Shown here: one piece after another, positions 2,746-22,880 of the stretch | How the letters are laid out: each line of letters begins with the position of its first letter | Position numbering within the stretch: position 1 is the stretch's first letter | NCBI GenBank assembly: GCA_008932965.1 | Contig: WBXG01000006.1 | Location: 8,144-40,143, forward strand | Reading direction: 5' to 3' | DNA: 32,000 nucleotides | DNA from: Verrucomicrobiota bacterium | GTDB lineage: Bacteria; Verrucomicrobiota; Verrucomicrobiia; Chthoniobacterales; UBA6821 | Program-made: the position numbers and the translations under genes | Notes under the pieces: model-generated | Database searches by the model: none | The model's input: the letters and a program-made list of their open reading frames with translations, nothing else | What the model was told of the DNA's origin: nothing

Positions 2746-2810
2746 GAACCCTGATATTTCATACTCATCGCAGCTTCCTCGTCACGATGAGTATGGAATA
2801 TTCGGGTTTA
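2746..2810. repeat. Mini (about 65 bp) member of the palindromic repeat family
   Basis: Sequence: GAACCCTGATATTTCATACTCATCG-CAGCTTCCTCGTCA-CGATGAGTATGGAATATTCGGGTTTA. It is essentially two terminal inverted repeats back to back. It sits between the upstream terminator and the rpsO start. Confidence 0.7.
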
Positions 2811-3341: not shown

Positions 3342-3463
3342 AGTAATTTTGTTAATAAGTTAGATGTATCTTGCGATAGGAAAGATAACATAACACACCT
3401 TACTTATTTCGCAAGGCCTGATGATGCTTCTAACTTCCTTGCCTCAAGGATCCTTAAGAATTA

Positions 3464-5255: not shown

Positions 5256-5532
5256 GGGTTAACCCGGATATTTCATACTGAATCGTCATGAGGCGCTGCG
5301 AATCCTGATGCAGACACCACCAGCGGTCGGGAGACCGCGGGGGAGACTGCCCTGGCTTTAAGGGGGCAGCACTGAAAGGGCGAGACGAGCGGGAGCAAGC
5401 GAGTCAACGAAGGTGATGGATTGTGACGACGGCTGTATGTTTCATACTGCCCGAGGAGCAATTCGAAGGTCAAGCAGTATCAATCAGGTGTTCGCAAGCC
5501 GCAGCAGAATCGGTATGAAATAGGCGGGTTAA
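5256..5532 (+). mobile_element. Long-form (277 bp) palindromic MITE-like element, intergenic
   Basis: The element runs GGGTTAACCCGGATATTTCATACTGAATCG...CGGTATGAAATAGGCGGGTTAA. It carries the GC-rich internal module, which is near-identical to the one at 6039-6133 (1 mismatch by eye). Indels break the open frames seen in the genic copies. Confidence 0.85.
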
Positions 5533-6353
5533 GATTCTGGTGGTTCCAATAGCCTAATTTTGGGATCGATCCAGCGGCTATCAGGAAAAATCAGGGGAGG
5601 AGTGGTAGTAACGAGGGTTGCTTTTTCTAAAACAAACTCAGGATAAAAAGAATCACTTGCTGGTTCATACACTTTCTCGCCGGAGAAGTGCCCCTCAAGT
5701 TGATACTCATAATTATTATCAGCTCCTATTTGATTTTTTTTTCGGTCAGGAGCTAGCATTTTTTGCTCGTTGAACATGACTAATTGAGACCCTTTCCAAG
5801 GTTTGCTGGGCTCTTTTACCCAGCCCCACATATGATAGTCGACTTTATAAAAACGACGTCCTATGAAGTAGTGACCTGGTGTTTCATTGGCAATGGCCCT
5901 CTTAATGGCAGTACGATCAGAGGCATTTTGCTCAACGATGGTTGTGCACCCAGAAAGAAATAGAAAAAAACCTAACAGTATCCCTAGCCCGAATATTTCA
6001 TACTGATCGTGACGAGGAGGCCGCGAAAGCTGATGGGGCACCACCGGCGGTCGGGAGACCGCGGGGGAGACTGCCCTGGCTTTAAGGGGGCAGCACTGAA
6101 AGGGCGAGACGAGCGGGAGCAAGCGAGTCAACGCAGACACATATTTTGACGCAGGGCTGTGTGTGTACACACTGCCCGAGGAAGACTTCGAGATCAACAC
6201 AGCATCCATCTGACTTCCCGGTCTCCGCAGTAGATCAGAATGAAATATTTGGGCTAAAGCAACGAGGAATGGCTGTTGAAAGAATATTCTATCTTTAGAA
6301 ATTCTTTTTTCATCATGATGACTCTGAGATCGCTCTCGTGGATGATCAGGCAT
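5529..6353 (-). CDS. Putative lipoprotein whose 5' region is occupied by a repeat element (start uncertain, possible pseudogene)
   Basis: The C-terminal roughly 150 aa look like a genuine protein preceded by a lipobox (GILLGFFLFLSGC). Codons 33-123 of the ORF are exactly the 273-nt element at 5985-6257. There is no canonical start codon between the element and the lipobox. Confidence 0.55.
   Translation of the reverse strand: MPDHPRERSQSHHDEKRISKDRIFFQQPFLVALAQIFHSDLLRRPGSQMDAVLISKSSSGSVYTHSPASKYVSALTRLLPLVSPFQCCPLKARAVSPAVSRPPVVPHQLSRPPRHDQYEIFGLGILLGFFLFLSGCTTIVEQNASDRTAIKRAIANETPGHYFIGRRFYKVDYHMWGWVKEPSKPWKGSQLVMFNEQKMLAPDRKKNQIGADNNYEYQLEGHFSGEKVYEPASDSFYPEFVLEKATLVTTTPPLIFPDSRWIDPKIRLLEPPES
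5985..6257 (+). mobile_element. Long-form (273 bp = 91 codons) palindromic MITE-like element inside ORF 5529-6353
   Basis: The element runs TAGCCCGAATATTTCATACTGATCGTGACGAGGAGGCCGCGAAAGC...GATCAGAATGAAATATTTGGGCTAA. It is read on the minus strand as LAQIFHSDLLRRPGSQMDAV...PPRHDQYEIFGL without a stop. Confidence 0.9.
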
Positions 6354-8661: not shown

Positions 8662-9240
8662 ATGATACGCTTTTTATTTTTTCGTAGGGGTCTTTTTGTA
8701 ATTCTGCTGATATGCTTTGTTCATTGGAGCATGGGTGCAACAGCCTTGGAGGGAACATCACCTCCTAGTGATCCCTTAAAACTAGGAATTGGGAGTAAGC
8801 CCCGACCCAAGAATGCACGAACTATTATCGATGCAGAAGAGGGAGCATGGTTTGATGATTTAACCAATACCATTGAATTTAATGGGCATGTGGTTGTGCA
8901 CGATCCGCAGTTTATCCTCTATTGCGACAAGTTGCATGTTGTGATGAATAAAAATCGCCAAGGCCTTCAGCAGGTTATCGCCACAGGCAATGTCATTATT
9001 GAACAAGAAAATACGAATGATCAAGGGGAGGCTATCAAATCCGTAGCACGTGCTGGCGAGGCTCTTTATGATCCCGCGACTGGCGATATGACACTGAAAA
9101 TAGGACCTCAGATTCAACAAGGTCGAAGCTATCAAGTAGCAACAGAAGAGGGCACAGTGATGATTCTCAATAATAAGGGAACTTCAAGGACCATTGGAAA
9201 AAGTCGGGCTATGGTCGTCGACCCTGGCCAAACACCCTAG
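8662..9240 (+). CDS. lptA: LptA/OstA-N domain periplasmic LPS transport protein
   Basis: A signal peptide is followed by an OstA_N-like pattern (IEFNGHVVVHDPQFILYCDKLHVVMNKN...VIATGNVIIEQ). AGGAG lies 7 nt upstream of the ATG. It sits between lptC-like and lptB. Confidence 0.75.
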   Translation: MIRFLFFRRGLFVILLICFVHWSMGATALEGTSPPSDPLKLGIGSKPRPKNARTIIDAEEGAWFDDLTNTIEFNGHVVVHDPQFILYCDKLHVVMNKNRQGLQQVIATGNVIIEQENTNDQGEAIKSVARAGEALYDPATGDMTLKIGPQIQQGRSYQVATEEGTVMILNNKGTSRTIGKSRAMVVDPGQTP

Positions 9241-11475: not shown

Positions 11476-11499
11476 CAATAAGCTTTTGCAGCTGCTTTT

Positions 11500-11672
11500 T
11501 ACTCACCCTAATCGTGACGAGGAGGCCGCGAAGGCTGATGGGGTAAGGCAGGCGAGCATTTTGATGCAGGGCTGTATGTGTACATACTGCCCAAATCAAA
11601 ATGGGAGTCTAACGCAGCATCCATCTGACTTCGCGGTTTCCGTAGTAGATCAGTATGAAATATCCGGATTAA
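11500..11672 (+). mobile_element. Short-form palindromic MITE-like element with a degenerate left terminus
   Basis: The element runs ...TAATCGTGACGAGGAGGCCGCGAAGGCTGATGGGGTAAGGCAGG...GTAGTAGATCAGTATGAAATATCCGGATTAA. I count only 6 mismatches against the copy at 27032-27216 over about 160 nt aligned by eye. Confidence 0.85.
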
Positions 11673-13486: not shown

Positions 13487-13866
13487 AGGTGCATCTTAAT
13501 TCAGACTCTCATCATTCAGAGCTCTTTGATGAAGCAACAGGTGCTCTTGCTATTGGAGATCTTGAAGGTGCCGTCACCCTTTATCAGCAATGTGTCGACT
13601 TAGAGCCTGAATTTTTTGAAGGATGGCATGCCTTAGGAATGGCCTTGATGAAGATAGGTCGCTACTCGGATGCGATCCAAGCAGGATTACGAGCAACGGA
13701 GCTTGCTCCTAACGATCAACTGGCATGGTCAAGCCTTTCTCTTTTTTATGTTCGTAATCACCAAATTCCCGAGGCAGAAGCAGCAGGGGTGAAAGCAAAA
13801 ATTCTTTCATGGGGAGGAAAGATTGCACTTGGTGCTACGCAGAGAAGCCCGGATATTTCATCATGA
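13483..13866 (+). CDS. Small TPR-repeat protein
   Basis: The 127-aa product has TPR-like helices (GAVTLYQQCVDLEPEFFEGWHALGMALMKIGRYSDAIQAGLRATELAPNDQLAW). The last 5 codons (PDISS*) are encoded by a repeat terminus. Confidence 0.65.
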   Translation: MKVHLNSDSHHSELFDEATGALAIGDLEGAVTLYQQCVDLEPEFFEGWHALGMALMKIGRYSDAIQAGLRATELAPNDQLAWSSLSLFYVRNHQIPEAEAAGVKAKILSWGGKIALGATQRSPDISS

Positions 13867-13934
13867 AGTCTCATGCGGCGCTGCTGAGTCATATCGACGC
13901 TGCATTGTCACGATAAGCATGAAATATCTGGGAT
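13846..13934. repeat. Mini (about 89 bp) member of the repeat family
   Basis: The sequence runs AGCCCGGATATTTCATCATGAAG...GTCACGATAAGCATGAAATATCTGGGAT. Both termini are recognisable and the interior is heavily reduced. Confidence 0.65.
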
Positions 13935-14026
13935 CGAAAAATTGGAAAATCCTAGAATTCTCCTCTTATTACGTTTAGCTTCCTTCTCACAGTTTAATTT
14001 TCATTACCAATTTTCACTCTATCATC

Positions 14027-15960: not shown

Positions 15961-18900
15961 GTGAGTACTTCTCCACAACCTCTCTTTTTTGATTGGAAGA
16001 ACCCCTGGCTACCGCCTCTTGCTACCTATTTGCTGCATACGTGGAATCAAGGAACAAGCGCTTCTCAAGAGGATCTTTCTTCAACTGTAGTTGTTCTTCC
16101 TGGTCGTCGTGCGGGAAGGAGGCTTTTAGAGTTATTGGCATTGGAAGCAGAGAAAGAGAAATGGAATTTGAATCCTCCTTCTATTGTGACACTACGCGAG
16201 GCGGTAACCCTACTGTTGAAACCAAGTGAAAAAACTCTTCCCGAAGCGAGTGGCGTATTGCAGCGATTTGCCTGGCGTGAGGCTTTTCGAATGCTTCCGA
16301 AGTATCATCGAGATCATATTCAACCTTTTTCTAAGAAGGTCATTCCTCCAAGAAGTAGTGAGGTGTTGATTGGAATCATAGAATCACTTGCAGAAGAGAT
16401 CGGAAGTAAGGGGCTTGATTTTCATACTGTGGCAGTTCGAGTGGGAGAGGTTTTTCCAGAATCTGCAGAACGAGAGCAACCTCGCTGGGAAGCACTTGCT
16501 TATCTTCAAAAAACCTACCGCAAGATGATGGCTTCATGGGGATATTCTGATCCTGCCGACTTTCTACGTTCTTCTCTCACCCATGGAGAAGTGTCCAAGG
16601 GTGTTCGAGTACTCGTAGCAGGAGTAGTGGAGGCTCCTCCACTTTTTGAATCTTTTTTTGAAAAAATAAAGCCCGCAGTGATTATTATTGCACCTAAGGA
16701 ACATGCGGCAGGCTTTACCAATCATGGATTACTTGTGAAAGAATATTGGTTAGAGCATCCACCAGTGATTCAAGATACAGAGCTCCTTCCATGCGAACGA
16801 AATGAAGATCAAGCAAAGGAGGTGGTTCGATTAATAACCCCTTTTAAGGATAGGAGATCCGAGGTAACTGTTGCTCTCCCAGATTCCTCAACACTCCCCT
16901 TACTACAAACTCGGTTGGCACATGTAGGAGTTACAACTCGATGGGCAGGGGGGCTTCCTTTTCGTGGAGGACGTTTGTATCAACTCTTAAGAGCCATTGC
17001 TCATTTTTTAGATCATCACAACTATTCAGGACCAACAATAGCAGCTCTCAGTGCTCTTGTGCGCCATCCTGATATTTATCCCCATTGCATGGCACCAGAG
17101 GCATTTTTAAAAAAACTTGATCTTTTAGAACGTGAGCATCTCCCGCTCTTTTTAGATAAGGGAAGTCTTGCTTCTTTCAAAAAAAATGAAGACCTCCTTC
17201 TCTGGATAGATGAACTTGAAACCCTCATTGGAATTGGGTCAGAGCCAGTATCGCTAGAGGAGGGAGCATCGAAATTACGAACTCTTTTGCAACATCTTTT
17301 CGGAAAACGGAAGGTACGGGGGAATACTTTTGAGGGGCATTATTTTTTAGGATGCCTCGAGGAATGCTTACACCTGCTAGATGAAATCGAAGAGATGGGT
17401 CCTCATATTTCTGAGCATTTTTCAATGAGTGCCTTTCTAGAAAATCTTCTGGAACTTCTTAAAGAAAAAAATATCCCAGAACAAGAAGAACCAGAAGCAC
17501 TCGAATTACTTGGATGGCTAGAGTTGCAGGCTGATGATGCTCCCTATTGCATCATCACTTCATGCCACGAAGGATCTTTTCCACAGAGTTTAACATCCAA
17601 TCCTTTTTTGTCTCAGGGGCTTCGCTCACGTTTGGGTCTTAGTGAGGAGAGTTTGTTGCTCGCACGTGATCATTATCTTCTTCAAAGTATTATGGCTTCC
17701 CGCCAGGTTATCTTGATAGCACCTCGCTACAATGGTCGTGGAGAACCTGCTCGTCCTAGCCGTCTTTTAATGCTCGGATTGACTTTAGAGGAGTTGCCGC
17801 AACGGGTCCTCCAATTAACACAACCTCTCTTAGCCCCGATATTTCATACTGATCGTGACGAAGAGACTGCGAAGGCTAATGGAGCGGGAGCGAGCGAGTC
17901 AACGCAGGCACGTATTTTGAAGCAGGGCTGTAGGAGTCTGACGCAGCATCCATCTGCCTTCTCGACCTCCGCAGGTGATCGGTATGAAATATCTGGGCTA
18001 AAAGAAGAAAAAATAAAGGAGCGAGCCCTCCCTCATCATGCTTCTCACTTTCATGCACGACCTCTCGGTACAGAAAAGGTCACCTGTGTGACAGTGACAG
18101 GACTCCGGACCTATTTACAATCACCGCGACTTTTTTATCTCCAGCATGTCCTGCGACTTCATGAAGTGGAGGAGGCTCCCCTAGAAATGAATGCTGGTCA
18201 TTTTGGACGACTCATTCATGAGGTCTTAGGAGCTTTTGGGATGGAAGAAAAAAATATCCCGTCAACCGATGCACGAACTTTATCAGAGTGGCTTCGAAGA
18301 AAACTTTTTTCTATAGCAGAGCACTATTTTGCTCCAGGACCCTCTCTTCCGATTCAATTACAATTGGAGGCCATGGCGGAGACCTTAGATGGCTTTGCAC
18401 AAGCTCAAGTAGCCCATTACCAGGAGGGATGGAGAATCATTGCAGCTGAAAACAACCATTACTCTTCATCCCCAGTGATTGAGGAAAAAATGGCACTCGA
18501 TGAGGGAGGCTCTCTTCTGTTACAGGGTCGCATTGATCGTATCGATTGGAATTACAAGCTGAGTCGCTGGATGATTATCGATTATAAAACACGGCACGAT
18601 CAGGAATGGAGCAATGCCACCCCTGATAGAGAACATTTTCAAAAAAAAGGAGAAAAAATTCTTTGGAAAGATCTTCAGCTTCCACTGTATTTAAGACTCT
18701 CTGCTCACTGGAAGGCGATTCAGGAATCAGGGCTTCCTGCTCCCACTATTGAGAATACCGATCTGTGCTACTTTCAGTTACCCATAGAAACGGAGCAAGC
18801 AGGAGTGAGTGAACCATTTGATCCTAAGATGATCCTGCCTGGATGGAATGAAGCACGTCGTATTATGAAAGCGATCGTAGATGGAAATTTTGATGCACTT

Positions 18901-19017
18901 GGAACAATCGAAGCCATACGTATGCCTACCCTTGCTGCTCTCTGTGGAATTTCAATACTAGAACCTAAAAAAAATGGGGTGATTCGCTCGGGGAGTGATT
19001 CAGAAACTATTGAGTGA
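15961..19017 (+). CDS. AddB-like subunit: PD-(D/E)XK nuclease family protein with degenerate helicase-like N-terminus, carrying an in-frame repeat insertion
   Basis: It has a C-terminal nuclease motif (GRIDRIDWNYKLSRWMIIDYKT). It overlaps the downstream UvrD-family gene by 4 nt (GTGA). Size and order match addB-addA/rexB-rexA pairs. Confidence 0.75.
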   Translation: MSTSPQPLFFDWKNPWLPPLATYLLHTWNQGTSASQEDLSSTVVVLPGRRAGRRLLELLALEAEKEKWNLNPPSIVTLREAVTLLLKPSEKTLPEASGVLQRFAWREAFRMLPKYHRDHIQPFSKKVIPPRSSEVLIGIIESLAEEIGSKGLDFHTVAVRVGEVFPESAEREQPRWEALAYLQKTYRKMMASWGYSDPADFLRSSLTHGEVSKGVRVLVAGVVEAPPLFESFFEKIKPAVIIIAPKEHAAGFTNHGLLVKEYWLEHPPVIQDTELLPCERNEDQAKEVVRLITPFKDRRSEVTVALPDSSTLPLLQTRLAHVGVTTRWAGGLPFRGGRLYQLLRAIAHFLDHHNYSGPTIAALSALVRHPDIYPHCMAPEAFLKKLDLLEREHLPLFLDKGSLASFKKNEDLLLWIDELETLIGIGSEPVSLEEGASKLRTLLQHLFGKRKVRGNTFEGHYFLGCLEECLHLLDEIEEMGPHISEHFSMSAFLENLLELLKEKNIPEQEEPEALELLGWLELQADDAPYCIITSCHEGSFPQSLTSNPFLSQGLRSRLGLSEESLLLARDHYLLQSIMASRQVILIAPRYNGRGEPARPSRLLMLGLTLEELPQRVLQLTQPLLAPIFHTDRDEETAKANGAGASESTQARILKQGCRSLTQHPSAFSTSAGDRYEISGLKEEKIKERALPHHASHFHARPLGTEKVTCVTVTGLRTYLQSPRLFYLQHVLRLHEVEEAPLEMNAGHFGRLIHEVLGAFGMEEKNIPSTDARTLSEWLRRKLFSIAEHYFAPGPSLPIQLQLEAMAETLDGFAQAQVAHYQEGWRIIAAENNHYSSSPVIEEKMALDEGGSLLLQGRIDRIDWNYKLSRWMIIDYKTRHDQEWSNATPDREHFQKKGEKILWKDLQLPLYLRLSAHWKAIQESGLPAPTIENTDLCYFQLPIETEQAGVSEPFDPKMILPGWNEARRIMKAIVDGNFDALGTIEAIRMPTLAALCGISILEPKKNGVIRSGSDSETIE
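17830..18001 (+). mobile_element. Intermediate-form palindromic MITE-like element inserted in frame (171 nt = 57 codons) in the addB-like gene
   Basis: The element runs TTAGCCCCGATATTTCATACTGATCGTGACGAAGAG...GGTGATCGGTATGAAATATCTGGGCTAA. It is translated as LAPIFHTDRDEETAKANGAGASESTQARILKQGCRSLTQHPSAFSTSAGDRYEISGL. Confidence 0.9.
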
Positions 19018-22000
19018 TTATGCCTCTTTTTATTCAACGAGCTTCAGCGGGATCAGGTAAAACAGAGCAACTTGCACGCCGTTATTTGCAGATTCTTTTG
19101 AATAAAGATCTCATGGGCTATGAGGTCGATCCAGTTACAATTGTAGCAGCAACGTTTACCCGGGAGGCTGCAGGAGAAATTTTAAATCGTATTTTGAAAA
19201 TACTTTCGACCGCATGTCTGGATAGATCGGTCTGCCAAAGGATTGTCGAAGAGACACCCCTCCCCGTCCCATCACCAATCGAATGCCAACGATTACTCCG
19301 ACGACTCATGGAGCGCATCGATGAGCTTCGTATTGGAACCATCGATTCCCTTTTCGCTCAGCAAGCACGTGCTTTTGTATTGGATCTTGGAATAGCCCCT
19401 CATTGGGAAATTGCAGATAGTCTGACGGTCCATAAACTGGCCCAAAGAACCTTGCTTCATCTCTTGAAGTTAGATCCGCTCTTTGCACAAGATTGGAAGA
19501 TTCTCCACCACTTTCAACGATCCCTTTCCTTGGTGAAAAAAGGGGCTCTTCTTCTTGAAAAAAATCGTTTTGTCGCACGTCATGAGCTACTCGAAACAAC
19601 TCCAGAAAAAAAATCTCCTCCACGAAGGGTTTCAAGAGAAGACCAAACATCGATTCATCACTTTTTTTCCTCATTTCATATTCCTCTTACTGGTCAGGGA
19701 AAACCGAATGGGCATTGGATTGCTGCTATAAAAAAAATAGAAGAGGCTTTTTCTCAACCGCTCTATCTCAAGGATGTATTAGACCATAGTCCTCTTTTCT
19801 CTCAACTACTTCATGAGGAACCCCGTTTTTATGGAAAAGAAATACCACCAGAATTCATTTATTTTTTTTCTCCGTTAATAGAAGCTTCACAAGCTGAACA
19901 ACAACGCTTGGCCTTACTTCGAGAAGGAGCATTGCATCGGCTTGCACACGATTATCACTATCTCCGAAGTGACTATTCCTTTGACGAAGGTCGCTACACT
20001 TTTCAAGAAATTGAAGAAATAGTAAGTCTCTCCTCCCAGAAAATATCTAAGGAGGAAATCGAATTTCAGATGGACCTCTCTACGGAGCATCTCTTAATTG
20101 ATGAATATCAGGATACCAGCGAGCGTCAGCATGCCTTTCTCTCTCCTTTGATTGGAGATGTGCTCGCAAAGGGAGGGGTTGCCTTTGTGGTTGGAGATGT
20201 GAAGCAGGGAATTTATGGATGGCGTGGAGGAAAGCGGCATCTTCTAGGTTCTTTAGAAAAAGACTACGAATCCTATCTTCAAAAAACCAAGCTTCACCAC
20301 ACAAGTTATCGTTCTAGCCCTGCCATTCTAGCAGCAGTGAATCACGTTTTTGAGGCACTCAAAAATTCAGATGTTGTTGAAGGAATGAACGCTGGAGAGC
20401 CATTTAAAGAAGCTGCAGCACGCTGGTCGCTTGAATTTGAACCCCAGGTATCAGCTACTTCTGTTGTTGGCTTAAAAGGGAGTGTCACGCTTCACAAAAT
20501 TCCAGTGGCTCCAGGAGAGCTTCAGAATGAGATCATGGAATTGGTTATTCAAAAAGTAGTGGAGCTAGTAGTAGCTCATCGACGAGAAGATCCATTACGT
20601 GAAATTGCAATTCTTGTGAGACGCACGAAATTTATTCCTTCTCTACTTTTGAACTTACGAGAGAGTGGAATATTAGCAAGTGGAGAGGGAGGCAATCCAC
20701 TCGCTGATACGTTGGCTGTTGAGGTGCTCCTCTCCCTACTCTCATGGATGGAGCATCCAGGAAATTCTGCAGCCTATGAACATGTACACTCATCCCCATT
20801 AGGAGATCTGTTAAAAGAACAGGGAGCTTCCCCCTCCACTCAAGGGGCTGCACTACGTGAACTACTAGTGGATCGGGGTTATGCAACATGCCTGCGTGCC
20901 TGGGCCACACGACCGGTTTTTCAAGAGGCATGCAGTGATTATGAAAAGGAACGCCTGGAACAATTCATAGCAATGGCTTCCCGCTTTGAATTGCTTGGTG
21001 GTGGGGCTCCCTCAGATCTTGTGGCACGGGCACGTGAGGAGCGCGTGGAGAGCCCTTTAAGTCGTGGAGTGAGGGTGCTTAGCATGCATGCTGCCAAGGG
21101 GCTCGAGTTTGAAAGTGTTGTTCTCATGGATCTCGACACCTCTATTTTTGGTGGGAGTGCCCATGCAATGCGTGTTCAAACAACAGATGATGGAAAATTC
21201 TTTATTCAGAATAATCGTGAAATGACCTTGCTACAAGGGAGAGAGCATTTATTAAAAATCCATCAAGAGGAGCAATGGGAGGAGGCATTGAGCCTCCTTT
21301 ATGTGGCGATGACACGAGCGATTTGCTTTTTAGATATTGTGCTCATGGACGATGTGAACCGGAAAATTCCAAAAAAAAGCATGGCAGGATGGCTACGTGT
21401 CTCTGGGCTTGAAGACCATCAACATGATGGTCTTTCGTTACGCGAGCAAAGAACAAAAACAGCTCTAGCCCCCATATTTCATACCGATCTACTACGGAAG
21501 CCGGGAAGTCAGATGGATGCTGCGTTGAGCTCGAAGTCTTCCTCGGGCAGTAGGGACTCATACAGCCCTGCGTCAAAATATGTGTCTGCGTTGACTTGCT
21601 CGCTCCCGCTCGTCTCGCCCTTTCAGGGCTGCCCCCTTAAAGCCAGGGCAGTCTCCACCGCGGTCTCCCGACCGCCGGTGGTGCCCCATCAGCTTTCGCA
21701 GCCTCCTCTTCACGATCAGAATAAAATATGCGGGCTAGAAAGTAATAGTGATAAGAAAAAGCCGTGTTCGTTCGAGGTAACCTCACTTCAAAGGTCTCCA
21801 CTATTGCTGAAGCGAACCCCCTCCAAAGAAAATCAAAAAGGGCTTCATGCGTTATCTGACTATTTTTATGATCGGAAAGCCCGTTCCTATGGAATCGTCC
21901 AGCATCGTGCACTAGCTCAGATAGAATGGATTAACAGGACTGCATCTCATCCATTGAACGAAATACTAGAGAAGAAAGAAGATCATGCTGTTTTTGATGA

Positions 22001-22298
22001 GGAGTATTTTTTCTCTAAATGGAAAAAATGGGGAATTACCACATTGGAGGTCTGGAGGGAGCGGCGCTTTGCTGTGATTCAAAAAAACGAACTACTCGTA
22101 GGGACTTTTGATCGAGTTATTATAGGTTCCCTTGAAAAACCCATGGTGGCTGAAATCGTCGATTTTAAAACAGCTCCAGCCCAGGACAAAGAGCGACGTT
22201 GTCATCACTACGAGCTGCAGCTCGAGGAGTATCGAAAGGCTCTTCAACATTTGCTTCCAACATTAAGACACATTGAAACAAAAGTTGTTTGGATTTAA
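19014..22298 (+). CDS. AddA-like UvrD/PcrA-family helicase with C-terminal PD-(D/E)XK nuclease, carrying an in-frame repeat insertion
   Basis: Helicase motifs present are ASAGSGKT, LIDEYQDTS, VGDVKQGIYGWRGG, MHAAKGLEFESVVL and LLYVAMTRA. The C-terminal nuclease motif is GTFDRVIIGS...AEIVDFKT. The start is GTG 19014 or ATG 19020. Confidence 0.85.
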   Translation: MIMPLFIQRASAGSGKTEQLARRYLQILLNKDLMGYEVDPVTIVAATFTREAAGEILNRILKILSTACLDRSVCQRIVEETPLPVPSPIECQRLLRRLMERIDELRIGTIDSLFAQQARAFVLDLGIAPHWEIADSLTVHKLAQRTLLHLLKLDPLFAQDWKILHHFQRSLSLVKKGALLLEKNRFVARHELLETTPEKKSPPRRVSREDQTSIHHFFSSFHIPLTGQGKPNGHWIAAIKKIEEAFSQPLYLKDVLDHSPLFSQLLHEEPRFYGKEIPPEFIYFFSPLIEASQAEQQRLALLREGALHRLAHDYHYLRSDYSFDEGRYTFQEIEEIVSLSSQKISKEEIEFQMDLSTEHLLIDEYQDTSERQHAFLSPLIGDVLAKGGVAFVVGDVKQGIYGWRGGKRHLLGSLEKDYESYLQKTKLHHTSYRSSPAILAAVNHVFEALKNSDVVEGMNAGEPFKEAAARWSLEFEPQVSATSVVGLKGSVTLHKIPVAPGELQNEIMELVIQKVVELVVAHRREDPLREIAILVRRTKFIPSLLLNLRESGILASGEGGNPLADTLAVEVLLSLLSWMEHPGNSAAYEHVHSSPLGDLLKEQGASPSTQGAALRELLVDRGYATCLRAWATRPVFQEACSDYEKERLEQFIAMASRFELLGGGAPSDLVARAREERVESPLSRGVRVLSMHAAKGLEFESVVLMDLDTSIFGGSAHAMRVQTTDDGKFFIQNNREMTLLQGREHLLKIHQEEQWEEALSLLYVAMTRAICFLDIVLMDDVNRKIPKKSMAGWLRVSGLEDHQHDGLSLREQRTKTALAPIFHTDLLRKPGSQMDAALSSKSSSGSRDSYSPASKYVSALTCSLPLVSPFQGCPLKARAVSTAVSRPPVVPHQLSQPPLHDQNKICGLESNSDKKKPCSFEVTSLQRSPLLLKRTPSKENQKGLHALSDYFYDRKARSYGIVQHRALAQIEWINRTASHPLNEILEKKEDHAVFDEEYFFSKWKKWGITTLEVWRERRFAVIQKNELLVGTFDRVIIGSLEKPMVAEIVDFKTAPAQDKERRCHHYELQLEEYRKALQHLLPTLRHIETKVVWI
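21465..21738 (-). mobile_element. Long-form palindromic MITE-like element inserted in frame (273 nt = 91 codons) in the addA-like gene
   Basis: The element runs CTAGCCCCCATATTTCATACCGATCTACTACGGAAGCC...CACGATCAGAATAAAATATGCGGGCTAG and includes the GC-rich module (21589-21683). It is translated as LAPIFHTDLLRKPGSQMDAALSSK...PPLHDQNKICGL. Confidence 0.9.
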
Positions 22299-22474
22299 CC
22301 CGCATATTTCATACCAATCACCTGTGGAGATCGGGTCAGATAGATGATGCGTTCATCTCAAAGTCTTCCTCAGGCAGTGTGTACACGCGCATATGTCGTC
22401 AGACTTCATCGCTCGTCTTGCCCTATCAGCCTCGAGACCTCCTAGTCACGATCAGTATGAAATATCCTGGCTAA
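22295..22474 (-). mobile_element. Palindromic MITE-like element (180 bp) abutting the addA-like stop codon
   Basis: The element runs TTAACCCGCATATTTCATACCAATCACC...GTCACGATCAGTATGAAATATCCTGGCTAA. The addA-like TAA (22296-22298) is within its terminal TTAA. Confidence 0.85.
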
Positions 22475-22748: not shown

Positions 22749-22880
22749 TTAGCCTAAATATTTTATACTGATCGTGACGAGGCGGCCGTGAAGACTGATG
22801 GGGCAAGACTTCGAGATCAACGCAGTAATGAGGAGCTTTCCACAAGCCGTAATAGATTTAGTGTGAAATATCCGGGTTAG
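22749..22880 (+). mobile_element. Internally deleted (132 bp) variant of the palindromic element
   Basis: The element runs TTAGCCTAAATATTTTATACTGATCGTGACGAGGCGGCCGTGAAGACTGATGGGGCAAGACTTCGAGATCAACGCAG...TTAGTGTGAAATATCCGGGTTAG. The same variant occurs in reverse at 31869-32000. Confidence 0.8.

Follow-up and report, generated by a model that had tools for sequence, protein, structure and literature searches.

The gene of an AddA/RecB-type helicase-nuclease (19020..22298, + strand) in the 32-kb stretch of DNA analysed here (the window) contains a segment that is very probably a tolerated, translated selfish insertion, analogous to the Rickettsia palindromic elements (RPEs). A non-autonomous DNA transposon (MITE), which was presumably mobilised in trans by a transposase, would have inserted at a CTAG within the coding part of addA, with duplication of these 4 bp, later than the separation from the sister species and earlier than the divergence of the sampled strains. 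It would have landed in the flexible tether joining the helicase motor to the nuclease domain and, judging from its sequence, would be transcribed and translated there as a 90-residue Ser/Pro-rich disordered extension, about doubling the tether from 83 to 173 residues. This extension is probably neutral or slightly deleterious, without function.

The insertion in addA

To assign the host gene, we relied on Pfam, Foldseek and sequence motifs. Pfam detected UvrD-helicase, UvrD_C (end at residue 769) and PDDEXK_1 on AddA, with the PD-(D/E)XK nuclease domain at residues 955-1080, and the top Foldseek matches of the AddA model were RecB (8b1t_B) and AddA (4cei_A), with an E-value of about 1e-28. 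The residues of Walker A (GSGKT), DEYQD, motif VI (VAMTRA) and the nuclease motif D...DFK (D...D-x-K) were invariant in the AddA alignment. The gene starts with the ATG at 19020, the ORF list having a GTG at 19014 (ORF 19014-22298). It thus combines SF1 UvrD-like helicase motifs and a C-terminal PD-(D/E)XK nuclease, with the gene of an AddB-type partner subunit upstream (15961..19017, + strand), the latter being recognised by PDDEXK_1 at residues 711-945 and by homologues named ATP-dependent helicase/nuclease subunit B. Compared with the sister species, addA had a dN/dS of 0.156 upstream of the insert (helicase part) and 0.176 downstream of it (nuclease part), both values averaging over the time before and after the insertion; AddA itself is still under purifying selection.

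The repeat at 21465-21738 consists of a 266-nt core (21469..21734, + strand) between two copies of CTAG, the target-site duplication (left, 21465..21468; right, 21735..21738; both + strand). The ends of the core are inverted repeats, CCCCCATATTTCATACCGATC and GATCAGAATAAAATATGCGGG (21469-21489 and 21714-21734), and the core translates as APIFHTDLLRKPGSQMDAAL...PPLHDQNKICG. Its predicted fold has an energy of -107 kcal/mol (z = -4). A preliminary description of this DNA had reported a repeat copy at this location that begins on a codon boundary and has no stop, all of which is borne out in ORF 19014-22298. The same description had called it a 91-codon insertion; the insertion is indeed in frame, and its net size comes to 90 codons (270 nt), the first CTA being a Leu codon of the host target site.

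The copy is of a long form that differs from the 182-nt form of the family by an extra internal module of ~90 nt (30 codons; 21595..21684 with approximate boundaries, + strand), as judged by comparison of the peptides and by 98-nt repeats (D8, I4). The module is GC-rich with two local hairpins, and its core has matches inside long-form copies only. The host frame of the addA copy runs through without a stop and the other five frames carry 1, 3, 4, 6 and 6 stops, the single stop that closes the opposite orientation being located in the module.

The insert was expected to lie after helicase motif VI and before the C-terminal nuclease, in a linker, and the limits of UvrD_C and of the nuclease domain given by Pfam (769 and 955-1080) agree with this position. 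An AlphaFold model of AddA built from a 116-sequence alignment had a mean pLDDT of 85.7, and its only stretch below 50 was 820-928, comprising the insert and the native linker, so that the insertion falls in the sole stretch predicted to be disordered, the tether from helicase motor to nuclease domain. No secondary structure is present in the insert itself in this model (pLDDT about 25-35). A 12-sequence alignment had given a poor model, and at its pLDDT of 59 low confidence in the insert is meaningless. No Pfam domain was found in residues 770-955 of AddA, the region of the insert. Within the RecB/AddA architecture the insertion occupies the equivalent of the tether, which connects the last helicase helix to the nuclease domain. 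Motif VI and the PS motif of the nuclease are 75-141 aa apart in 114 homologues; in this species the element brings the distance to 173 aa and makes the tether about twice as long as usual. The PDB titles of RecBCD structures (e.g. 7mr0-7mr4) describe a RecB nuclease domain that docks and undocks.

The direction of the event is that of an insertion. In a syntenic locus of a sister species (L001, 86% nucleotide identity), the addA site is empty and AddA is exactly 90 aa shorter at this point, after correction for the start codon and for a 1-aa indel elsewhere, and the segment is missing in 114 of 116 AddA homologues; the earlier reading of the segment as an insertion is confirmed on both counts. 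In the species itself the insert is fixed among the sampled assemblies. All eight full-length variants, which come from independent assemblies of the species, have it open, with the 1092-codon frame intact. Nucleotide differences number 9 in the 273 nt of the insert and 25 in the 3006 nt outside (p = 0.0014), with nonsynonymous to synonymous changes of 8:1 in the insert and 11:11 outside, and variable residues make up 8/90 of the insert and 15/1002 of the rest of AddA. Compared with the remainder of addA, the insert changes about 4 to 6 times as fast, chiefly at the amino-acid level. Part of its higher substitution rate could stem from gene conversion by other copies and not from relaxed constraint.

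A dispersed repeat family with a YTAR target

We scanned DNA for the terminal repeat of the family, yielding more than 88 loci, nearly all in MAGs of Chthoniobacterales/Spartobacteria, and 147 TIR-paired copies in about 700 kb. Together with the copies in the window, these establish that the addA segment belongs to a dispersed repeat family, as had been proposed from the sequence. Every copy has TIRs of about 21-24 nt, TAGCCCGGATATTTCATACTGATC-like and inverted at both ends, with element ends CCCGG...CCGGG (end sequence CCCGGATATTTCATAC). Elements range from 64 to 300 nt with a mode of 182 nt and are devoid of a transposase gene. Left and right flanking 4-mers are identical in 88 of 146 elements, where 40 would be expected, and among flank pairs that are not palindromic CTAA/CTAA occurs 10 times and CTAA/TTAG never. 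The target consensus is YTAR (TTAA 72, CTAG 32, CTAA 18, TTAG 18). A 2-bp TA duplication of the IS630/Tc1 kind was rejected, since the co-varying flanking bases show the 4-bp YTAR. The family is therefore a MITE family with a 4-bp YTAR target duplication. A protein-database search with the 91-aa peptide retrieved 26 small hypothetical ORFs, from intergenic copies only; it missed even the known AddA cluster, and hosts were catalogued by the terminal-repeat DNA scan instead.

About 14 copies are present in the 32 kb of the window. The closest relative of the addA copy is a long form at 5984..6257 (- strand), in frame with ORF 5529-6353(-); as a reverse complement, the addA copy is 91% identical to 5984-6260 over 277 nt, far beyond chance. 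The similarity that had been claimed between the two encoded peptides is real, with the same element orientation and frame. The 5984-6257 copy directly precedes the hydrophobic region of a lipoprotein signal peptide and its lipobox (LSGC), and its translation is uncertain because of this position at the 5' end of the ORF. Among orthologues of this ORF, one locus (L057) has no copy there and another (L071) has a 182-nt copy further upstream. A third long-form copy (5259..5532) is closed by stops in all six frames, and its terminal TTA/TAA provides the stop codon of ORF 5529-6353(-). A 178-nt copy at 22295..22474 starts exactly on the addA stop, TAA 22296-22298, and is common to the sister species, where L001 has a TIR match at its own addA stop (13010). 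The canonical 182-nt form is represented by a near-perfect intergenic hairpin at 27032..27215 (fold -95 kcal/mol, z = -11), whose xTA frame is open in both orientations. The remaining copies that we delimited are an intergenic one of ~182 nt at 11490..11672, with a degraded left terminal repeat and 95% identity to 27046-27215, and three short ones: 130 nt and intergenic at 22750..22879, 91 nt and degraded at 13845..13935, and a minimal 64 nt at 2746..2809 that is essentially two terminal repeats.

AddB also has a copy (17830..18001, + strand; 170 nt TIR to TIR), located immediately upstream of its nuclease domain, in the opposite element orientation to the addA copy and with the peptide LAPIFHTDRDEETAKANG...GDRYEISGL. 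It was seen only here and in L001 and is missing in the 10 other orthologues, in line with the earlier statement that both AddAB subunits hold insertions of the same family. In a related species (P0007), AddA has a 182-nt copy at another site, an independent AddA insertion that its sister (P0006) is without. Orthologous sites are accordingly polymorphic for presence and absence in three comparisons: addA against L001, P0007 against P0006, and AddB against its 10 orthologues. It is from element anatomy and from presence and absence at such sites, and from these alone, that we infer mobility. A second, unrelated repeat family was found in both AddA and AddB of a different MAG.

In about 650 kb of sampled DNA we looked for an autonomous partner and saw no TIR pair 0.6-2.6 kb apart that encloses a single ORF; nor was a multi-copy protein present among 365 ORFs in the sampled loci. 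The terminal-repeat pattern was absent from the viral contigs scanned. Insertion sequences of the IS5 group and their MITEs insert at YTAR and duplicate 4 bp; piggyBac-type elements use a TTAA target and have CCC...GGG ends. The YTAR target and 4-bp direct duplication of the present family recall the former, and TTAA as its commonest target (72) and its CCCGG...CCGGG ends recall the latter; both likenesses are taken as leads only, and unlike in either group no transposase gene bounded by the family ends was seen in the sampled DNA.

Reading frame of intragenic copies and rival explanations

In the related Chthoniobacterales MAGs sampled (about 650 kb), every one of 26 intragenic copies occupies the permissive xTA phase and is of a length that preserves the frame. 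This phase accounts for only 56% of the YTAR sites in ORFs, giving p = 2.6e-7 for 26/26, with the qualification that a copy was counted as intragenic only if the frame stays open through it, a definition that partly presupposes the result. A conservative subset of 14-16 copies, which leaves out two copies in L020 (where the ORF is mostly repeat) and several close to the 5' end of an ORF (pseudopilin-like and lipoprotein genes), gives p of about 1e-4. As a control, ten ORFs stop inside an element, of which only one resembles an interrupted gene (AsnB-like, in a related MAG, with a single in-frame stop within the element). The hosts are genuine housekeeping genes, among them those for GlnD, PriA, Dxr, MurD, AddA, AddB, LMW-PTP, PheA and AroD, as well as a LivM-type permease, a PMT glycosyltransferase and OprB. 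About 18% of the copies sampled fall within ORFs and another 22% exactly on stop codons, where elements are 7.5-fold enriched.

The terminal repeats themselves contain stop codons (TAG, and TAC TGA), and these impose the restriction in frame. The TIRs close two of three frames, and the addA element with its duplication adds 270 nt, a multiple of three; a genic copy would thus survive only with the target TA at codon positions 2-3, and in addition only where the protein tolerates extra residues. The preliminary description had taken a single orientation and frame of the long form to be compatible with residence in genes, and had proposed to examine genic long-form copies genome-wide for this. 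In the MAGs sampled, the frame part is upheld, with all 26 copies in one phase, and orientation is unconstrained in the commoner 182-nt form, which is read both ways in genes (11 against 10). Of the long-form copies in the window, the two intact ones (E21466 in addA and E5985) are each open in one orientation and frame only, and the third (E5260) is closed in all six frames. A 281-nt variant of the long form, from another MAG, has the other orientation open, in a doubtful host ORF.

We weighed three other explanations of the addA segment. Its 90 residues might alter the tether or add an interaction surface and now be kept by selection, which would fit an insert that is fixed and open in all eight variants, a partner subunit that also has a copy just before its nuclease domain, and the second repeat family in AddA and AddB of a different MAG, where a change in tether length might be perhaps more than tolerated. 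Permissive linkers explain this recurrence in AddA and AddB equally well, however, and a kept function accords poorly with amino-acid variability about 6 times that of the rest of the protein, with eight nonsynonymous changes to one synonymous, with a predicted lack of structure at pLDDT of about 25-35, with a sister species and 114 homologues that manage without the insert and with related peptides in many unrelated proteins; we regard exaptation as improbable. Still less credence is due to the idea that addA is inactivated or becoming so and that the open frame through the element is coincidental. Ninety extra residues could damage a repair enzyme, and the AsnB-like host gene in a related MAG has an in-frame stop inside its element, but in addA the full frame is intact in eight independent assemblies, every helicase and nuclease catalytic motif is conserved and dN/dS stays at 0.16-0.18 to either side of the insert. 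A random frame of 91 codons would moreover be open with a chance of roughly 1-2% (estimated from a stop frequency of 3/64), and the remaining five frames of this copy are closed.

The element might also never reach the protein, being removed from the mRNA (e.g. by hairpin processing) or bypassed between the duplicated CTA codons. A strong hairpin that draws the element ends together, and a target duplication that puts identical CTA codons at both edges, would lend themselves to this. An element so removed or bypassed would require no open frame and no length in multiples of three, and yet both are found in 26/26 intragenic copies; nor was there an intron or other RNA family match in Rfam or an intein domain in Pfam. 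Such non-translation is in our view the least probable of the three. An intein or self-splicing intron was rejected, given the absence of a Pfam domain in residues 770-955 and of any Rfam match anywhere in the window. A tolerated, translated insertion thus stays the preferred explanation.

Relation to known repeats and significance

RPEs are short palindromic repeats of about 100-180 nt in many copies (Ogata et al. 2000, as summarised in PMC10969869 and PMC3184786), a large share of which lie in frame in unrelated housekeeping genes at positions compatible with the fold (PMC10969869, PMC3184786). Both RPEs and the present family add a family-specific peptide in frame to unrelated housekeeping genes (26 copies here), and both occur as several families per lineage, a second one having been seen here in another MAG. 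They differ in that the hosts here are free-living freshwater Chthoniobacterales and not an obligate intracellular alphaproteobacterium, and in that the present family has clear TIRs, a 4-bp YTAR duplication, copies in both orientations and a long form with a 30-codon module. Because nearly all repeat-bearing genomes are Chthoniobacterales/Spartobacteria, we treat the element as an RPE analogue and not a member, likened by behaviour with no claim of sequence relationship. The same sources review other bacterial MITEs fused in frame to ORFs, namely ERIC/YPAL/RU (Delihas 2007; PMC3184786, PMC10969869) and likewise pneumococcal BOX/RUP/SPRITE and Anabaena MITEs (PMC3184786, PMC10969869). These too are non-autonomous hairpin repeats with open frames, sometimes in genes or extending 3' ends, but intragenic copies are exceptional among them, against the 18% in ORFs and 22% on stops found here.

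Beyond the single insertion, the family may be adapted to life in and around coding sequence, as RPE-like 'translatable' transposons, a proposal that we consider possible and put forward tentatively. Its consensus would be a 60-codon cassette (90 in the long form) of frame-preserving length, the one TIR-compatible frame of which would be open in both orientations, and the YTAR target would direct it either in frame within genes or onto TAA/TAG stops, a landing that is harmless because the duplication regenerates the stop. The consensus is open in both orientations, as are, per orientation, 31 or 32 of 42 non-genic 182-nt copies. Such bidirectional openness arises by chance alone with P = 0.03 to 0.19, to which length would contribute another factor of one third, and is by itself only weakly unusual. 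The pattern may reflect filtering of copies once inserted as well as selection on the element.

Selfish repeats lying in frame in housekeeping genes are commonly presented as peculiar to Rickettsia and tied to small population size and relaxed selection. The present family displays RPE-like behaviour at high density in planktonic, free-living Verrucomicrobia, and its mechanism of insertion can be read from TIRs and the YTAR duplication, with sister species that have empty sites as natural controls. For annotation, many spurious small 'hypothetical proteins' in these genomes are repeat copies, and annotated protein lengths are inflated by mobile DNA. The family offers a system for studying how proteins tolerate, and perhaps recruit, disordered insertions of 60-90 residues, and for asking if tether length matters in AddAB/RecBCD-type enzymes. 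If the proposed adaptation to coding sequence is true, free-living Chthoniobacterales would continually gain disordered segments of 60 or 90 residues in essential proteins, including both subunits of AddAB.

Position and fixation of the addA insertion

The addA ORF (19014-22298, plus strand, ATG at 19020) carries Pfam UvrD-helicase, UvrD_C and PD-(D/E)XK nuclease domains and lies directly downstream of an AddB-type gene (15961-19017). The element within it (21465-21738) consists of CTAG, a 266-nt core whose ends are inverted repeats, and a second CTAG. A repeat finder run on the window paired 21462-21738 with 5984-6260 as an inverted match (277 nt, 91%) and linked many shorter copies to the addA copy. 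In six-frame translation the host frame of this copy was the only open one, with 1 stop in the equivalent reverse frame and 3-6 in the others. The preliminary description of the copy (an in-frame repeat insertion, open in this orientation and frame only) was accurate; overall, its observation was confirmed and its interpretation supported, with minor corrections.

A protein search retrieved a 1092-aa relative with the segment (98% identical) and a 1003-aa protein without it (87% identical). When orthologues were aligned, the insert residues were confined to the window protein and its near-identical relative, and the other Chthoniobacterales orthologues joined ...EQRxK... straight to the conserved ...KKKPCSFE... 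region. The contig of the 1003-aa protein, from a sister species, was syntenic with the window (addA 86% identical), and in the DNA alignment the element was cleanly missing from it. Once the start codon and a 1-aa indel elsewhere were discounted, the two genes differed at the site by 90 codons net, which equals the core (266 nt) together with a single 4-bp duplication. The insertion is in frame as first described, and its length is corrected from 91 to 90 codons. The reconstructed target was ...GCT CTAG AAA..., where the sister species reads CAAG. Among 116 homologues, motif VI and the pre-nuclease PS motif were 75-141 aa apart, except in the window protein and its relative (173 aa); without the element the window spacing would be 83 aa.

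Clustered at 90% identity, the insert-bearing protein formed a group of 8 full-length members (1092 or 1094 aa) drawn from NCBI, JGI and ENA assemblies, including KAB2644704.1 from a Verrucomicrobia MAG, identical to the window protein. The insert was open in all 8, and each of the 3 members of the sister cluster was 1003 aa long. The addA insertion is real and fixed; an assembly artefact was excluded by these two clusters.

A structure model was built from 116 sequences (mean pLDDT 85.7, pTM 0.76), a 12-sequence version being too poor for use. Its only stretch with pLDDT below 50, residues 820-928, corresponded to the insert (817-906) and the native linker after it, had no secondary structure, and bridged the last helicase helix (807-816) and the nuclease domain, which begins near residue 930. 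Foldseek grouped the model with RecB and AddA, and RecBCD entries titled "docked" and "undocked RecBNuc" fit the known mobility of the nuclease domain on its tether.

Compared with a 99%-identical strain, 9 of 273 nt differed in the insert and 25 of 3006 nt outside it (Fisher p = 0.0014); the changes in the insert were 8 nonsynonymous and 1 synonymous (11:11 outside). Across the 8 variants, 8 of 90 residues varied in the insert versus 15 of 1002 elsewhere, and no stop or frameshift was found. Against the sister species, addA dN/dS was 0.156 over the helicase part and, past the insert, 0.176 over the nuclease part. Intact frames, low dN/dS and faster change within the insert together indicate that the host frame is kept through the element; the inserted peptide itself is thus weakly constrained or unconstrained.

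Anatomy and reading frame of the repeat family

We scanned for the family with a consensus of its terminal inverted repeat (TIR), TAGCCCGGATATTTCATACTGATC; copies, complete or partial, numbered about 14 in the 32-kb window. This density is very high (roughly 6-7% of 1-32000), and the window genes are otherwise ordinary housekeeping genes (PNPase, KdsA, LptC/A/B, HprK, SurA-like, DnaX, AddBA, FabF, RNase R, secretin). Solo TIRs were seen at 9238, 24631, 29507 and 31870, several overlapping gene ends. In a wider scan of one genome per species, almost all of the matches listed belonged to a few Chthoniobacterales/Spartobacteria MAGs, recovered from freshwater and comparable metagenomes. We paired 147 left and right TIR ends among the matches listed and the window. 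Among the matches listed, the modal element length was 182 nt (69 copies of 153 pairs, duplicate loci still included), with a minor class near 272 nt.

The same Y-TA-R 4-mer flanked both sides in 88 of 146 elements among the matches listed (40 expected), with targets TTAA (72), CTAG (32), CTAA (18) and TTAG (18). Since non-palindromic pairs among the matches listed were direct (CTAA/CTAA, 10) and never inverted (0), the element duplicates 4 bp of target, YTAR. Some elements occur in tandem, two of them having a single duplication in common. Such doublets at three related loci (L020 2928-3388, L083 1583-1944 and L086 6879-7240) overlap by the shared TA, which suggests that the second element landed in the duplicated target of the first; the L086 doublet separates the prephenate dehydratase domain of PheA from its ACT domain, adding ~120 residues. 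Folding gave a near-perfect hairpin for the 182-nt form (-95 kcal/mol, z = -11), and -107 kcal/mol (z = -4) for the addA long form. Rfam gave 0 matches in the window, and no transposase partner was found in the sampled loci among the matches listed or in viral contigs. This anatomy is that of a MITE. A 4-bp YTAR duplication is a property of the IS5 group, and TTAA targets with CCC...GGG ends are piggyBac-type; the family resembles both in these features, which serve as leads only.

Read from either end, the TIR is open in one frame, xTA GCC CGG ATA TTT CAT ACT GAT (L-A-R-I-F-H-T-D), the second giving TAG and the third ...TAC TGA. Insertion lengthens the host sequence by a net 180 nt (182-nt form), 270 nt (long form) or 168 nt (AddB copy), each divisible by three. 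With stops in two TIR frames and such lengths, an element is host-compatible only where the target TA occupies codon positions 2-3 (the permissive phase). In the consensus of 63 182-nt copies among the matches listed, the permissive frame was open in both orientations and the other 4 frames were closed. The reverse orientation of the long form is closed by a single stop inside its extra 90-nt module, which accounts for the single usable orientation in the preliminary description; this holds for the long form and fails for the 182-nt form, read in genes 11 and 10 times in the two orientations among the matches listed and thus unconstrained.

Genic copies and their hosts

The frame of genic copies was tested on 142 non-redundant elements (among the matches listed and the window). 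Inside long open frames lay 26 of the 142, and all 26 among the matches listed were in the permissive phase with frame-preserving lengths, bearing out the predicted signature of purifying selection on hosts. YTAR sites in long ORFs among the matches listed split 56:44 between permissive and non-permissive phases, giving p = 2.6e-7 for 26/26; when the count was conservatively restricted to the 14-16 copies that are clearly internal, p was ~1e-4. Pfam-confirmed hosts were GlnD, PriA, Dxr, MurD, a low-molecular-weight phosphatase, a LivM-type permease, PheA, AroD, a PMT-family glycosyltransferase and an OprB porin.

For 31 of the 142 elements among the matches listed, the terminal TAA/TAG ended an upstream ORF that was 100 codons long or more; 76 had no long ORF entering, and in 9 by the first count (10 when listed case by case) a long ORF entered and stopped inside. 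Insertion on a stop codon leaves the protein unchanged because the target duplication regenerates the stop. One such copy (22295-22474), common to the sister species, takes the addA TAA (22296-22298) as its first three bases. Among the matches listed, stop codons made up 2.9% of YTAR sites versus 22% of elements (p = 2e-18), and ORFs of at least 150 codons covered 75% of sampled DNA versus 18% of elements. Together, the phase, stop-codon and ORF-depletion numbers show strong filtering against harmful insertions.

Where an ORF ended inside an element, 8 of 10 cases among the matches listed had no long same-strand ORF after it and look like natural 3' ends. The ninth was trmD, which encodes a tRNA methyltransferase and has a separate gene after it. 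The tenth was an asparagine-synthase-like gene (L051 1301-1482, minus strand) with an SGGIDS motif downstream; its element is in frame, with a single stop near the element end and the frame unchanged beyond. It is the sole candidate found for a host damaged via its element, and may reflect a sequencing error.

The AddB copy sits just before the AddB nuclease domain and was absent from ten other orthologues. At an identical position, 631 codons into the AddB ORF, the window carries a 170-nt copy (17830-18001) and the sister-species contig a 182-nt copy (L001 8806-8987) of a different subfamily in the opposite reading orientation, with interiors that barely align either way. Either two elements independently inserted at the same TTAA site, or an ancestral copy was replaced or inverted by recombination with other copies. 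The Chthoniobacterales AddB orthologues P0164 and P0175 carry their own unrelated insertions of at least 40 residues in the pre-nuclease linker (alignment A4, ~620-705 in window AddB), apparently a general hotspot of length variation. In a related species, the AddA homologue P0007 has a 182-nt copy of this family (L005 9102-9283) at another site, immediately past the IIDFKS motif in the nuclease domain region. The closely related P0006 is without it, and this is an independent in-frame insertion in the same gene.

A second, unrelated repeat family (~150-170 nt) occurs in frame right after AddA motif VI in another Chthoniobacterales MAG, Deming_bin.170 (L094 8311-8478), as an 86%-identical copy inside its AddB (L094 3647-3794), and as fragments inside a MurD ORF (L091 near 2709-2765 and 3415-3455); these genomes therefore hold several coding-compatible repeat families. 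The first family occurs twice in frame in a GlnD-type uridylyltransferase ORF (L023, 1027 aa stop-to-stop), close to the N-terminus and again at residues 853-913, ahead of the ACT domains. In two genes of lipoprotein type, this first repeat directly precedes the signal-peptide hydrophobic region and lipobox, as one element followed by GILLGFFLFLSGC or two followed by GIACIALSTVLFLTSC, and no start codon was visible in between in either gene; lipoprotein-type copies lie at window 5984-6257 (ORF 5529-6353, minus strand), L083 1583-1944 and L071 4757-4938. Because the element frame is open, translations of intergenic copies also appear as many spurious 53-138-aa "hypothetical proteins" (P0121-P0146) in public annotations of these MAGs.

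Origin of the insert and standing of the family

The best-supported reading is a selfish, translated MITE insertion in the tether: the element would have survived owing to where and how it landed, and its segment would be translated as a disordered extension of the flexible linker. Removal of the element from RNA, or its bypassing, is unlikely, as the frame and stop constraints would then be needless, yet they are universal here. That addA is a pseudogene conflicts with its intact catalytic motifs, low dN/dS and fixation across assemblies, and the substitution pattern makes exaptation of the insert less likely. A more novel possibility is that the repeat family is itself adapted to coding sequence, as a bidirectionally open whole-codon cassette with stop-codon-compatible targeting; shuffle tests leave this suggestive (P = 0.03-0.19 for openness, multiplied by one third to allow for length).

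In-frame palindromic repeats in housekeeping genes are the defining behaviour of Rickettsia palindromic elements (RPEs), and in-frame insertion of other bacterial MITEs into genes is sporadic (PMC10969869, PMC3184786). We found no paper in the literature mentioning both Chthoniobacterales and miniature inverted-repeat elements. The family described here behaves like RPEs without belonging to the RPE families. We therefore regard it as a new family with clear transposon anatomy, in a lineage that is both new and free-living.
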